DNA of 61,566 bases from Escherichia phage P13771. Position 1 is the first letter of the stretch. The number at the start of each line of letters is the position of its first letter. Of this stretch, positions 3,001 to 15,000 are shown in pieces. The stretch lies in sequence record HG792104; one strand, written 5' to 3'. The position numbers are program-made.

Positions 3001-6000
3001 ATCTCAATGGATGGTGTGCCGCATTGGTTACCCCATACATCAAATCCATGCGAGGTGTGGCGGGCGAACAGTTCTATCCGGGGAACATCGCCAAGAAGTT
3101 GCACAAGTTTTTCTCGAGCCATATCCGGCTTGCGGGAGTGATCAAGGCGTGGTGCAGTGAATGACTGGATTATTCCGGCGTTAATGCGTTCGGGCAGATT
3201 TCCTTTCACTGCAAAAAGGCAGTCTTCGCTGTTAGCGCGAGTGGTGCTACCCATACCCATGACCAGCTTGTCGGTCTGTCTTTTCCCGCATTTGTTCCAG
3301 GTTAATCCTTTCATCGTCACCAGACGAAAGCCCCACGCTTCTACAACCTTCAATGCTTCAAGTGGTTGTGTAGGCACCCACCACATAGCCAACAGGCAAT
3401 TCTCGGCTGCCAGTTCCCATACCGGGAGGCGGCAGATATCCAGAAGACTCATGACCGGATATTTAAAACTTGCACCGCGTTGACCATCGGTTGCTTTGTC
3501 GCGGAATGTCCAGGGGGGATCTGCGTAAATGAGGGTGTATTTTTTCGTCATAGCGCGTTTTCAAACTCATCAATGTAAAGTCCTGCTTTAATCAGTCGGC
3601 GACGGCGTTCGGCCTTTTGCACGTATTCCTCGCGACAGTTTTTTGCTGCGTGTTCACGGCTTCTGCGACTGAATGGAGGAACGGCATTGCGTGAGCGAGG
3701 TGTGTCACGACGAGGATTTGATTCGAGGGAGAAAAAGCGATCAACGATTCCGGTGTCTGTGGTGAATGGTTCTGAAGCCTTTATTTTCACAACCTTACTG
3801 CCCTTTGTCAGGCCGCGAGCTACCTTGTTGAACTCGCAAAGTGAAACACCAAATTTCTCTGCTATTTCACTGCCAGTAACAGGACGACCACGAGACTGAA
3901 TCATCCAAGTGACGCGTTCTTTTAACCCACGGAAGGCACCGGGCCTTCCAGAACGCCTGTAGAAAGCGATCTGTTTCAAATTTTTGTCTCCAGATATGAA
4001 AACCCCGACGGGATGTCGGGGATGGTAGGGGAAGTTACAGGCTTAACGAGAAGCCTTTTCGGGAATTTCGATCTGACAATCTTGAAATATCCTGTAGCGT
4101 GCGGCGCATTTCTTCCGTCAGATGCTTGAAGGCGTTAAATTCAGCGACAGCGGCGTCAACGTTATAGCCTTTGCTGTGTAGCTCATTGAGGATGCGCATA
4201 GTTGGGCTTGGCATGTCGAAGAGCACAGAAACGTCCAGGTTAAGAGTTTTTCGATCAACATAGCTCATCATGGAGTAGGGGTGGTGCTCTGAAAACCACG
4301 ATAGAGGGTAGTTGATGTTCATTGGTGCAGGTAAAAGGCTCTGGCGAAGTTTCTTTTCGCACTCGATGAAGTATCGGCGGATCTGGCGGCCTTTTTCGTT
4401 ACGCTCAACCATCGCCAGTTCTTTGGCTGTGTCGAGGGTGAGGTGGTAATCCTTGCGGCGGCGGCCTGGAGTTTTCGCCAAATTTGGCGAAAATAGAATG
4501 TAGTCTAAATTTTCTACGAATCCATACTCGTTTAGCCTGGCCCGTATCCAGTTAGAAAAATCTTTACCTACCTCTAAAAATCCATGCAAATCACGCGCGT
4601 TCACCAGAAGCGTAGGTTCATTTGAGATTGTACCTTCAAACACAGGGATGAGTTGAGTGGTCATGATGACCTCCTTTGGCTTTTTTCGAGAAATGCCACC
4701 ACAAAATGTGGTGCCGGGAGGCTCGAAACGGCCCAAAAGATACCGCGGACTTATTCCCCTTGCGGGTGTTGTATTCGTCGCCCTCCCGACATTGATCGGG
4801 GATGTGACCGCACACTGTGCTATCACTGAATAACAGGCATAAAAAATCCAACACTGACGGGGTTGGTTTAATCCGCTTTTGGGAGGTTTTCGAGGCCTCG
4901 GCGCGGAGTATAGTCAGTATTGGACGCAGTCGTCAACCATCGCAAGCTCTTTGGCTGTGTCGAGGGTGAGGTGGTATTCCTTGCGGTTGTGACCGCCTCT
5001 ACCTTTTGCTTGCCAATTTTGGCAAGCAATAACAAAATCTTGATTTTCAACGAATCCATATTCAGCAATGCGCTCTTTAACCCAGTGCGCGAACATTCTG
5101 CCCACACCAAGAAAAGAGTGTAGCTCACGAGCGTTAACTAGAAGAATTGTTTCGTTGTCGATAGTGCCGTTGAATACGGGGATGAGTTGACTGGTCATGA
5201 TGACCTCCTTTGAAGTTTTAGTTAGCAATCACCAGTTAGTGGCTGGTGATCGGGTGTCAACTAGAGCCTTCAAAGATGCTCCGGGCATATTCCCCTTGCG
5301 GGTATTGTATTACGCCTCTCCACCCGACCTTTGTACGGATGTGACTATGCCAAATTGCAGGCATAAAAAAGCCGCAAAGCTATCGGGTGCGGATGACCGC
5401 TTTGAAGTTCTAGTGCGGTCAGTATGCGATAGCTCTGGCGGATTTGTCAAATCATGTAGGCCTTATCTTGCTGTAAGCCGCGCCATTCGGGCTTTTCCCC
5501 AGATTTGGGGGAAACTATCTGCGAAGTATTCACCTTTGACGGCAAGTTGCAGGTTAGCCACGGTTAACCTCCTGCGGCGGTTCTGGTAGCGGCATCCAGT
5601 GTGTTACCTGCTCAACACCATTGCCCGGCTTAATCGTTGCTTCTCCTCGCCGAAAGGTGCTTCCGGTATAGCGTGCGGAGCATATTAGCGGCTCAACCAG
5701 ATCACTATCGAAATTCACCGAAATAAGTACGTTCTGATTCTTTTTCGGCATTCGCTCACTACAGCTTATCCAACTATCCGGAGTTACCGGATAGTTGCCC
5801 GATAGTGCATTCTGCTCCAGTGATGCTTTTACAAACCACGCTGCCTGAACTATAACGCCATGAATCCAGCGCAAATCAGCATCGCGATCTTTCTTTTTCA
5901 TCTTTTCGCCACTTAAGGCCTTGCTTATGTGGCTGCGTACCAGGTCTTCATGTAATTCCTTCGCCTCCTCAATGGTGAAACCACCAGGCAGAAGAGCCGG

Positions 6001-12000: not shown

Positions 12001-15000
12001 CGATCGCTGAGATATAATCGTTGTACGCCTCTTCAGCTTTTTCGCCAGTGAGTGCTAGTTGGGCTTCTTTGGGTAAAAAAAGGCTGCTCATAAGCAATGG
12101 TTTATCGGGGAACATGCTGATAAGCTCCTGCGCCCGATCATCAATCCATTTATCCTTTTCATCCTGAATTTGCTGATTAATCCAGCGACGCTCCTCTATG
12201 CGGTCGCAGGTGAGGTATGCGTTCATGGCGGAACTCCTGATTCCGGTTAATGCATTAAATTAATTTGTCGGGAAAGCTGACATACAGGGCAGTTACATTC
12301 TTCCTCCTGCTCCTTAGCGAAGAAATATGCAGCGGCCTGTAATGCGATATCTTCTGGATGTTCCGCGATAAACATAACATTGCCTTCCGTATCAATAACA
12401 GAAATAGCCTCATCAGACAGGACGACAAAATAGGCGATGATTTTATCATCCATAAAAACTTCTCCCATTATCGTTCCTGCTGGAGTTACGACGCTTTTTA
12501 CATTGATATTTATTTTTTGATTGAGCATGATATTTCCCTTCAGGCTGGTGAGATTAACGGTTGGCCTTTATTGTTCAGGTAAACTTCTATTGCATCTGAG
12601 ATAATGCGAATTTTTTCAATCAGTGAATGTGCGTAAAGTGCATTATTAACGTTCGCTGACGCCATGTAATAACGCCCGTTGTAAAGAATTGCTGTGCCGG
12701 GTTTAACGTCCTCGCGAGAAACTAATGCGGTTCCGTAGTGAGGTTTGAGCATGACAAATCCTCCGGTTAATTAATCCAGATATTTAATTTAATCCCCGAT
12801 ATGTGGTCGGGGATGGGGTTAATTAAAGATTTACGTTGAAACCAAAGCGGGAAGACTTTTCTGATGTACGGGAAATATCCAGCAATTTACGGCGCATTTC
12901 TTCCGTCAGATGCTTGAAGGCGTTAAATTCGGCGACAGCGGCGTCAACGTTATAGCCTTTGCTGTGTAGCTCATTGAGGATGCGCATAGTTGGGCTTGGC
13001 ATATCGAAGAGCACGGAAGCATCAAGGCTGATAACCTTGCGATCAACATAGTTCATCGTGGCGTAGGGATGGTTATCTGAGAACCACGAGAGAGGGTAGT
13101 TGATAGATAGCGTTGATTCTGGAAGCTGAAGTTGTTCTGGGATTTTTTGACTGAAATAGCAGTCTTCCAGTTTTTCGAACACTTCCCACGCCCGATCGGT
13201 TTCGAGCATTTTTGCGTGACGGGCTGCGCCGCGTTCTGTCCAGAGGATGAGGGAGCGAACGTTACGGGCGATTTTCACAGAAGGTCTTAAAGACATGCTG
13301 TGCTTAAATTCCCGCAACTCCTCATTCTCAAGTAAAAAGTAGTGCTTACCGATAACAAATCGTCCAGAATTCCGATTGAAATTTTTTCGGATGTAATCTG
13401 GTTCTGTGCCATATAAGCTGGCAAGAAGCTCTGTAGTCACCACAGGTATATTACTAAATGAAATTATGGAGAGGGACTCCACGGAGATGGTTTTCATGCT
13501 TTGCGTCCTACTTGATATTTTGATTTACCCCTTTTGAGAGGGTGACCGGGCGCTCAAAACCGCAAGTAGTCGGCGGGCATATTCCCATTGCTGGTATTGT
13601 ATTAGCCGCACGCCCGGTCATAAACCAAGAAGACTGGACACAAAAAAACCGCATGTCTGTCGGGCGCGGTAACCGCTACTTGCTAAGGTGTTTTGAGCAC
13701 CATGAGGCAGAATATATCCCCGTTAATGCAGCATTGTCAAACGATCTGTTCTTTAAAGACTTAACGAGAAGCCTTTTCGGGAATTTCGATCTGACAGTCT
13801 TGAAATATCCTGTAGCGTGCGGCGCATTTCTTCCGTCAGATGCTTGAAGGCGTTAAATTCGGCGACAGCGGCGTCAACGTTATAGCCTTTGCTGTGTAGC
13901 TCATTGAGGATGCGCATAGTTGGGCTTGGCATATCGAAGAGCACGGAAGCATCAAGGCTGATAACCTTGCGATCAACATAGTTCATCGTGGCGTAGGGGT
14001 GATGCTCTGAAAACCACGACAAAGGGAAATTGATATTCATCGCAGGAGAAGACAGGGCCAGTTGTTTCTGTTCCCATAGTTGTTTTTCCATGCGATCGAA
14101 TTCAGCAATGTAGGCTTCCTTGAATGCAGCTGCTTTTTTGCCGGTGAAGCCCATCACCAGAAAAACGAAGCCGTTTTTGGTGATTTGGTACATTGGGCGT
14201 TGTTCGCCTTTGGCGTCGGTGTAGGTAACGTCCGCAAAATTGCGGGCGTTAAATTCCGTAGAACAATCCATCAATCGGATTTTTTTTAAAACGTCGTCGT
14301 GCCGCTTGTCAAAAAATTCAGCAATAGCAATAGACGTTGTGACAACGCGACCATTGGTAATGGTGATTTCAGGTTGAGAAAGGGCAGGGATAGTAGCCAT
14401 AATGGCAGCCTCCTTGATTGGTGATTGAGAACCACCGCAGGAGGTCCTAAGCTCGCTGGCGGTGGACTGTACAGGGTTAGGACTACTGGCAATCAAGGGA
14501 ACCAGCCCGACCGAAGTCGGCCCCATACAGCCCACCATTGATAAGATGTGCGTGTATATCGATACAAAAAAAGACGCTGGCGCGTCTGTATCGCCTCGAT
14601 TGTCAGCGGGGTCCTAATCCCGACACCCGTTTTATAAGGTGTTCGCCAAATATAGCCCCCGACATCACACGCAGTCAATACCGTCCTTTCTCAGAAACGC
14701 TTTGGCGGTGCCGCCTGCACCCCAAAACATTCCCTGTATTGGTCAGCGCCAACTTCCTGCCAGTGTTGCCCGTTCTCACGCCGTTCTCGCTCTCGCGCGG
14801 GGATACTCTCTCATCGACCGGATCGCACCCGATGATACAGCACGTTTACGTGTAGGGGTCTAAACAGGTCATTGACGCTGTAAAGCTCCAGGTTGTTAAA
14901 GAGCATTTTGCGGCGGGTTAAGTCGCGCCGTACGACTGATTTATGTAGCCCTGTGTAAGGGCGCGATGTTTCTGGCTTGAAAGAAATATAACTTGCGGTG

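Follow-up and report, generated by a model that had tools for sequence, protein, structure and literature searches.

The window analysed here is the full 61,566-nucleotide stretch of Escherichia phage P13771 in sequence record HG792104. In its early-left arm, in the interval from cI (17670..18383, minus strand) to int, it carries four antirepressor-like genes, all on the minus strand, which we designate A, B, C and T4 (Table 1). A preliminary description of this DNA had reported the four open reading frames (ORFs), and all proved to be present and intact, with good Shine-Dalgarno sequences. The N-terminal domain types that it had proposed are borne out by Pfam matches above the curated gathering thresholds (GA): AntA in gene A (PF08346, 1.1e-26; 93.6 bits, GA 27), ORF6N in gene B (PF10543, 2.7e-19; 69.7 bits, GA 27.8) and the Rha family in gene C (Phage_pRha, PF09669, 1.6e-30; 106 bits, GA 29.9). 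TIGR02681 (107 bits) is also among the N-domain family matches. These domains had been called unrelated, and pairwise BLASTP indeed finds no similarity among them, but all three match the same region of PHROG 373 and PHROG 63, which indicates that they are divergent members of one superfamily.

Gene T4 matches AntA (2e-26; 92.8 bits) and no other Pfam domain, in keeping with its description as an N-domain-only gene, and it is 61% identical to the N-terminal domain of gene A. The label of a truncated fourth copy holds for its domain content, but not in the sense of a remnant: a 95-amino-acid form with the same C-terminus and the same stop codon occurs in Shigella phage 75/02 Stx (72% amino acid identity), the ratio of non-synonymous to synonymous substitution rates (dN/dS) between the two is 0.36, and T4 aligns with PHROG 6904 along its whole length. 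The short gene thus has the look of one that is being kept, not of one in decay. Public records hold the same genes at 95–100% identity (P13374/P14437 antB1, ORF26 and ORF29; TL-2011c; phi191; phage 2851 antA) under the names of antirepressor, antitermination or regulatory protein; in these annotations the RNAs described below are unmarked and the shared domain is unnamed.

Genes A, B and C end in a common module. A repeat finder identified a 288-nucleotide direct repeat in three copies at their 3' ends, with 81–91% identity to the copy in gene A; it corresponds to about 97 amino acids, in agreement with the earlier claim of a shared C-terminal module of roughly 100 residues with more than 200 bp of DNA identity. 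Pairwise, DNA identity in the module is 91.3% over 288 nucleotides for A and C, 93.6% over 234 for B and C, and 88.4% over 233 for A and B, and about 113 nucleotides are identical among all three copies but for one site. All copies are open, with dN/dS of 0.16–0.39 between them. Checked for low complexity, short similarity and pseudogene status, the repeat proved long and not of low complexity, and the ORFs intact. In A and B, the repeat extends beyond the stop codon into a shared CCCCGAC...TCGGGG hairpin, which copy C lacks.

No Pfam or NCBIfam model covers this module; on its own, it corresponds to PHROG 17980, a family of unknown function. A word-indexed homologue search returned just 19 close proteins, mostly partial and from E. 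coli or Shigella, and when phmmer was run exhaustively against 1.84 billion representative proteins, only 25 module hits emerged, including relatives at 28–48% identity. The distant homologues lie behind KilA-N, Bro-N, ORF6N, Rha or P22_AR_N domains, some with an ORF6C middle domain, and short proteins consisting of little but the module are also found in the databases (P0033; PHROG 17980). An alignment of 18 module sequences yields the conserved motif YPxxW...P...SP..R.L..L...GY[DN]V.A...E..AL[RK]H, followed by a final β-strand.

A profile built from the module alignment matched PDB 5D50 chain E ('Anti-repressor protein', from the Rep-Ant complex) with E=2.1e-5 in an hmmsearch of PDB sequences, and hhalign of the module against the full SPC32H Ant gave a probability of 92% (E=6.6e-7; 33% identity over 48 columns). 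Among the PHROGs, the modules weakly match two, phrog_450 and phrog_15539, and it is to these that SPC32H Ant belongs; in return, Ant matches the C-terminal part of phrog_1760, the ORF6N-plus-module family, at 1.3e-7. These reciprocal matches indicate that the module is homologous to the SPC32H antirepressor Ant. Ant of the SPC32H/epsilon15 group (PDB 5D50 chain E; PHROG 450) is a stand-alone protein of about 86 amino acids, whereas the domain described here forms the C-terminal third to half of 209–224-amino-acid proteins, behind a Bro-N/KilA-N-type domain, and has an extra N-terminal extension of about 30 residues (INYPLSWF... plus a β-hairpin). According to PMC9638917 and PMC9986798, both with reference to Kim et al. 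2016, SPC32H Ant forms a tetramer; by binding two dimers of the repressor, it disrupts the repressor tetramer that binds DNA. By homology to this protein, the shared module may be an oligomerising, repressor-binding effector.

A further argument for the tail as effector is its exchange for the C-terminal domain of the P22 antirepressor on the same heads. Phage 75/02 shares the AntA domain and the linker up to ...ECEKKLR, but continues from there with P22_AR_C (PF10548) in place of the module, and in phage 2851 an ORF6N-plus-module gene (antA) and an ORF6N-plus-P22_AR_C gene (antB) are adjacent. P22 Ant itself combines P22_AR_N with P22_AR_C; genes A, B and C gave no match to the latter at E up to 0.1 (Pfam). 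Together with the homology to SPC32H Ant, this substitution supports the earlier suggestion of a common effector domain delivered by different recognition domains.

The module copies also carry traces of exchange among themselves. Along the 297-nucleotide module, 16 consecutive informative sites between sites 58 and 189 all group B with C, and at the 28 informative sites between 231 and 290 C agrees with A; at site 253 each copy has its own nucleotide. By these blocks the module of gene C is an A-like/B-like/A-like chimera, the pattern that gene conversion among the copies would leave. The comparison with related Shiga toxin (Stx) phages that the preliminary description had proposed turned up natural recombinants, and revealed both recombinant junctions and cassette presence or absence. 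In P13374, a single antB1 gene replaces A and T4 and is exactly window 3500–4463 joined to 4933–6000, the junction having a 59-nucleotide overlap and lying within the 54-nucleotide AntA repeat (Table 1). The tandem A-plus-T4 form is present, at query coverage of at least 80%, in 40 phage records, and the single hybrid antB1 form in P13374-type phages, phi191, AU5Stx1 and phage 86. In phage PA2, a single Rha gene with a tail of the B type immediately precedes kil, the product expected of a crossover between C and B with loss of cassette B; at position A, PA2 carries an ORF6N head with an A-type module. Other pairings of head and module type are present among database proteins, one of which fuses the peptide read from the C4 RNA directly to the module. 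The view of the repeats as recombination substrates is thus upheld by the chimeric module of gene C and by the recombinants P13374 and PA2. These patterns indicate that gene conversion maintains the likeness of the module copies, and that the module and AntA repeats are crossover sites at which Stx-phage cassettes are created, fused and deleted. Beside the position-A gene of PA2, the stretch 10815..11792 carries HigA-type antitoxin annotations and another 'anti-repressor' of a different kind, and looks like a hot spot at which cassettes insert.

Turning to the sequences upstream, an Rfam match above the gathering score lies directly before each of the four genes on the same strand: sRNA-Xcc1 in three cases, with a 40-nucleotide repeat as the core of the element, and isrK plus C4 in the fourth. 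Antirepressor-like genes of phages 2851 and 75/02 are likewise preceded by an Rfam RNA, and RNA type is not tied to head type, as isrK and C4 stand before an ORF6N gene in phage 2851. The spacing from RNA to start codon is 38–54 nucleotides, and each of the four leaders has a promoter-like site upstream of it, where one would be expected. In every cassette, the loop of the second hairpin (b'), usually with an adjacent segment (a'), is complementary over 7–9 nucleotides to two boxes at the same structural positions, one in the upstream leader and one on the Shine-Dalgarno sequence of the gene; the complementarity of a' to a1 in cassette B reaches up to 12 nucleotides.

The box sequences differ among cassettes with pairing kept, that is, they covary. 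In the 75/02 orthologue of T4 the change is compensatory in all three partners, b' CUUGUAAG pairing with b1 and b2 CUUACAAG, compared with CUUUGAAG and CUUCAAAG here. Because the boxes differ between cassettes, four separate RNA specificities are indicated. Whole-sequence RNA duplex energies were uninformative, since long shuffled sequences pair too, and were replaced by the search for contiguous complementarity. No LexA box was found near 4035–14400, the only two CTGT-N8-ACAG matches of the window being near 55.3 and 59.5 kb, so that SOS control as in Gifsy or SPC32H finds no support.

Two annotated ORFs run across these RNAs, and public annotation can be corrected accordingly. The 147-nucleotide 'antB2' of the P14437 and P13374 records, considered as a fifth AntA remnant, was rejected, as it is an ORF call at 13508..13654 (minus strand) over the Xcc1 RNA of cassette B. 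Gene C has an in-frame upstream AUG at 14538, within the C4 RNA, which gives the 261-amino-acid form of public records; in the corresponding 786-nucleotide form of ORF29, the first 46 codons (14401..14538, minus strand) run across the C4 RNA. The peptide so encoded matches Pfam Phage_ASH (PF10554) in homologues, and that family may in part consist of translated C4-type RNA genes. The equivalent ORF of Gifsy-1, orf45, is however reported as translated. The sRNA-Xcc1 homologue of EDL933, with a ribosomal coverage value of 0.02, is among the RNAs classed as having low ribosomal coverage (PMC5331693), which lends some indirect support to the RNA scheme proposed below.

Table 1. Genes, repeats and predicted regulatory elements of the four cassettes in the window (b', a' and boxes a1, b1, a2 and b2 are assigned by complementarity)
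Feature	Position	Strand	Remarks
Gene A	4035..4664	-	209 aa; AntA N-domain + shared C-module (4035..4331)
Gene T4	4914..5198	-	94 aa; AntA domain only
Gene B	12823..13497	-	224 aa; ORF6N N-domain + shared C-module (12823..13119)
Gene C	13753..14400	-	215 aa; Rha-family N-domain + shared C-module (13753..14049)
Hairpin after gene A	4003..4021	-	intrinsic-terminator-like, with T-run
Hairpin after gene B	12794..12812	-	shared with copy A; without T-run
54-nt repeat in AntA domains of A and T4	4405..4458, partner 4933..4986	-	P13374 crossover site
Cassette C promoter-like site	14649..14678	-	sigma-70, TTGACT-18-TATATT; predicted start coincides with isrK 5' end (14642)
Cassette C isrK-type leader RNA	14567..14642	-	Rfam RF01394, 61.7 bits, GA 50
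Cassette C box a1 UUAGGAC	14611..14617	-	within isrK leader
Cassette C box b1 CAAUCGAGG	14594..14602	-	within isrK leader
Cassette C terminator hairpin, then U-run	14572..14587	-	within isrK leader
Cassette C C4 antisense RNA	14455..14542	-	Rfam RF01695, 78.9 bits, GA 45
Cassette C loop b' CCUUGAUUG	14490..14498	-	in C4 RNA
Cassette C a' GUCCUAA	14477..14483	-	in C4 RNA
Cassette C box a2 UUAGGAC	14444..14450	-	
Cassette C box b2 CAAUCAAGG	14412..14420	-	overlaps gene C Shine-Dalgarno AAGGAGG; 9-nt perfect complement to b'
Cassette B promoter-like site	13711..13740	-	TTGACA-18-TATATT, 11/12; just past gene C stop
Cassette B leader	13620..13704	-	weak hairpin, then U7; no Rfam family match
Cassette B box a1 GGUGCUCAAAAC	13690..13701	-	complementarity
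Cassette B box b1 GCAAGUAG	13676..13683	-	complementarity
Cassette B sRNA-Xcc1-type RNA	13536..13619	-	Rfam RF02221, 79.6 bits, GA 53
Cassette B b' CUACUUGC	13562..13569	-	in sRNA-Xcc1-type RNA
Cassette B a' GUUUUGAGCGCC	13549..13560	-	in sRNA-Xcc1-type RNA
Cassette B box a2 UCAAAAU	13517..13523	-	
Cassette B box b2 CAAGUAG	13508..13514	-	overlaps gene B Shine-Dalgarno AGGA
Cassette T4 promoter-like site	5421..5450	-	TTGACA-18-CATACT
Cassette T4 leader	5330..5414	-	terminator-like hairpin 5372..5392, then U6; fold z = -2.3
Cassette T4 box b1 CUUCAAAG	5400..5407	-	in hairpin loop
Cassette T4 sRNA-Xcc1-type RNA	5240..5329	-	Rfam RF02221, 65.4 bits
Cassette T4 b' UCUUUGAAG	5268..5276	-	in sRNA-Xcc1-type RNA; no a', a1 or a2 listed
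Cassette T4 b2/Shine-Dalgarno box CUUCAAAGG	5207..5215	-	
Cassette A promoter-like site	4907..4936	-	TTGACG-18-TATACT; overlaps gene T4 3' end
Cassette A leader	4791..4900	-	
Cassette A box a1 CUCGAAA	4888..4894	-	complementarity
Cassette A box b1 CCCAAAAG	4876..4883	-	complementarity
Cassette A sRNA-Xcc1-type RNA	4705..4790	-	Rfam RF02221, 74.5 bits
Cassette A b' CUUUUGGG	4732..4739	-	in sRNA-Xcc1-type RNA
Cassette A a' UUUCGAG	4722..4728	-	in sRNA-Xcc1-type RNA
Cassette A box a2 CUCGAAA	4684..4690	-	
Cassette A box b2 CCAAAGGA	4672..4679	-	overlaps Shine-Dalgarno AAGGAGG

The observed anatomy, the family memberships of the RNAs and N-terminal domains, the module homology, the recombination and the covarying complementarity lead us to propose, with moderate confidence, that the locus comprises four autonomous RNA-gated antirepressor cassettes of the P1 immI and Gifsy isrK kind. 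In the direction of transcription, each would consist of a sigma-70-type promoter, a leader bearing a1/b1 and a terminator-like hairpin, an RNA of about 85 nucleotides, a2/b2 and the gene. In a lysogen, the RNA of each cassette would be made and probably processed, and its loop b' (with a') would pair with b2 (and a2), masking the cassette's own Shine-Dalgarno sequence and blocking translation. Pairing with a1/b1, or titration by a short leader RNA as for IsrK, would set the switch, and a shifted balance of leader RNA, C4-type RNA and message would free translation. The full-length protein would join an N-terminal domain of the Bro-N/KilA-N superfamily (AntA, ORF6N or Rha) to an Ant-like module that would oligomerise and bind a repressor; the fourth gene would make the N-terminal domain alone. 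Repression of translation by the RNAs, binding of a repressor by the proteins and the identity of that repressor are the parts of this scheme that we infer.

Each element has a precedent. In P1/P7 immI, as PMC8201110 and PMC7313666 (citing Citron & Schuster 1990) describe it, the C4 antisense RNA derives from the same transcript as the antirepressor gene ant and regulates it via complementary upstream regions; C4-type RNAs beside antirepressor-type genes have also been noted in APSE phages (PMC7313666). As in P1/P7 immI, cassette C carries a C4-family RNA that shares the strand of an antirepressor-type gene and lies upstream of it, and in all four cassettes the loops find their complements in a1/b1 upstream and in a2/b2 downstream, b2 being located at the ribosome-binding site. 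Unlike immI, the cassettes lack a separate icd-like ORF, three of the four RNAs (A, T4 and B) are of the sRNA-Xcc1 type, and there are four cassettes, not one.

At the Gifsy-1 locus isrK-orf45-anrP, the read-through transcript is not translated until the short IsrK opens it in trans (PMC4825925), and AnrP activates phage transcription and induces the prophage (PMC4825925, Hershko-Shalev et al. 2016). Upstream of anrP, Rfam identifies isrK, C4 and c4-a1b1, the last being the family RF03163 for the a1/b1 targets of C4. Cassette C resembles this arrangement, being the only one with an isrK leader with terminator and a C4 RNA, and having an AUG inside the C4 RNA; AnrP moreover has an ORF6N domain, as does gene B. 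The loci differ in that the frame opened by AUG 14538 runs without a stop into gene C, whereas orf45 is separate and coupled in Gifsy-1, and in that the genes described here lie in the early-left arm and the Gifsy-1 locus lies downstream of Q. A shared module in AnrP was rejected, its C-terminus being unrelated (hhalign probability 0.4%).

SPC32H ant is LexA-controlled; control here is apparently by antisense RNA, with no LexA box near the genes, and the resident repressor is an S24-type CI. As to domain architecture, Iyer, Koonin and Aravind reportedly described in 2002 a network of shuffled Bro-N/KilA-N/Rha/AntA/ORF6N/P22_AR_N regulators of DNA viruses. The N-terminal domains described here likewise join interchangeable C-terminal domains, but the C-terminal domain is an unmodelled one linked to a solved antirepressor structure, and three copies occur in one phage, homogenised by gene conversion.

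Several observations weigh against this proposal. On the RNA side, the leaders of the three Xcc1 cassettes matched neither isrK nor c4-a1b1 nor any other Rfam family at E up to 1, so that their a1/b1 boxes are defined by complementarity; on folding, the leader hairpins of these cassettes, T4 excepted, are weak or unconvincing as terminators in A and B, and sRNA-Xcc1 stands outside Rfam's C4 clan. Dinucleotide shuffles of the RNA gave some 7-mer complementary to both targets in 18–132 of 1000 trials per cassette, a modest level of support for any one cassette, so the argument lies in the positional agreement and covariation across cassettes. On the protein side, the AlphaFold2 model of the module is of moderate confidence (predicted local distance difference test, pLDDT, 71 overall and 54–66 over the first 40 residues) and gave no Foldseek match in the PDB; single-sequence AlphaFold2 of full-length gene B was unusable (pLDDT 40). 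As to the target, SPC32H Rep reportedly belongs to another kind of repressor, and the CI of the window has HTH_3 and Peptidase_S24 domains, by which SOS induction through cleavage would be possible without an antirepressor. The identical module is also found in phages whose CI is only 68.6% identical (e.g. Lyz12581Vzw and Stx2_131713) and so is not tied to one immunity type; its co-occurrence with both CI types is uninformative on the target. In the searchable literature, no experiments on the early-left genes were found, and the published phenotype of phi24B ant / d_ant belongs to a different gene.

An alternative, which we think unlikely, is that the N-terminal domains carry the function, as DNA-binding regulators or otherwise, and that the module is merely an oligomerisation or tetramerisation domain without repressor contact, the RNA gating being retained. 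Gene C is by its match a Rha-family 'phage regulatory protein', and the purifying selection on the N-domain-only gene T4 fits this reading, as does the finding that the module is not bound to one CI type. Gifsy-1 AnrP activates phage transcription with an ORF6N domain and an unrelated C-terminus (PMC4825925), so that activity could lie in the N-terminal domain, and SPC32H Ant itself is a tetramer (PMC9638917), so self-association could be the conserved feature. We nevertheless prefer the repressor-binding role, as the module's only relative of known function is a repressor-binding protein, its substitute P22_AR_C also comes from a classical antirepressor, and the RNA control is of the kind known for antirepressor genes such as P1 ant.

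Rather improbable, in our estimate, is that the cassettes serve phage–phage conflict and not self-induction, whether as anti-immunity or trans-induction in poly-lysogenic E. coli that make Shiga toxin (STEC), in the manner of P1/P7 and Gifsy, or as KilA-N-like abortive infection. The c4 loops define immunity specificity in P1/P7, and four loop/target specificities are found here; the module is found alongside two or more CI types, a genome can hold as many as five copies of it, and antirepressor crosstalk between prophages is documented (PMC3121763; PMC7380047). PADLOC gave weak candidate hits (PDC-S05, 5.5e-7) on gene B, but these cover the generic ORF6N domain only, genes A, C and T4 had no hit, and no toxin or nuclease domain was found; a reading as a defence system is not supported. 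That the genes are inert leftovers of mosaic recombination, pseudogenes or passengers sharing sequence through recent duplication only, is very improbable: one copy is truncated and Stx phages are highly mosaic, with one to three cassettes per phage, but the ORFs are intact with good Shine-Dalgarno sequences, dN/dS is 0.16–0.39 (0.36 for the truncated form, whose stop codon is kept across genera), the regulatory RNAs and their targets covary, and the module is conserved with the same motif down to about 28% identity in other taxa.

Beyond the proposal of RNA-gated antirepressor cassettes, a bolder form of it, which we regard as doubtful, would see in the locus three to four C4-type RNA locks in an orthogonal array, each with a loop/target code of its own, that free one repressor-binding effector mounted on different heads for recognition of DNA or a partner and kept identical by gene conversion. 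Such an array would switch induction or anti-immunity in response to several inputs; it could help to set the rate of spontaneous induction, and hence Stx2 output, in O104:H4-type phages, and could drive cross-induction among STEC prophages. As a corollary, sRNA-Xcc1-type RNAs would work like C4 RNAs, with a1/b1 and a2/b2 targets.

Every component of the locus belongs to a described kind, no new kind of mechanism is involved, and the genes themselves are already deposited under loose names. Four points are new, as annotation and hypothesis: the shared tail is recognised as a domain without a model that has its homologue in an antirepressor of solved structure; recombination between modules is demonstrated together with its natural products; the Xcc1-type leaders follow a C4-like a/b target logic; and four such locks with different codes are present in one phage. 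The analysis thus supplies a structural homologue for an unmodelled domain, explicit RNA–target pairs and natural recombinants in which the rebuilding of a regulator can be followed. Shiga toxin is released only on prophage induction, so a phage device that inactivates a repressor, or that senses conditions by way of small RNAs, could alter both toxin output and phage spread.

The window phage is an O104:H4-type Stx2a phage, and the cassettes belong to the O104:H4 outbreak phage family. Window 3500–15000 is 99.5% identical to Escherichia phage P14437 and 98.7–98.8% identical to the O104:H4 outbreak Stx2a phages P13374 and phiON-2011, which are of the genus Oslovirus together with phi191 and TL-2011c. 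The module is present in 104 of 50,697 phage records (at least 80% amino acid identity; 218 places, one to three copies each), all of them Stx or related E. coli/Shigella phages, and its DNA in 230 of 5,426 complete E. coli genomes (442 places, all chromosomal, one to five per genome). The CI of the window is found in identical form in 72 phage records.

Finally, some neighbouring features of the window were noted. A fifth antirepressor-type gene (29859..30428, plus strand) encodes P22_AR_N and ORF11CD3 domains and lies within the lysis cassette; it corresponds to phi24B ant / d_ant, the sole Stx-phage antirepressor with experimental data that was found. Between cassette C and cI lie ORFs 15156..16109 and 16106..17575 (minus strand), whose counterparts in P14437 and P13374 are annotated as restriction endonuclease and DNA methylase; the stretch 15156..17575 looks like a restriction-modification insert at the position of the N/early-left leader region. 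Two neighbouring ORFs are joined by a 62-nucleotide direct repeat (6788..6849 and 7537..7598, 77% identity); their P13374 counterparts are annotated as ead/Ea22-like, and they could form another paralogue pair able to recombine. Rfam matches above the gathering score further mark three tRNA genes upstream of stx2 (24146..24394, plus strand) and, downstream of stx2B, the small RNAs STnc100 (25803..26008, plus strand) and AsxR (26010..26062, minus strand).

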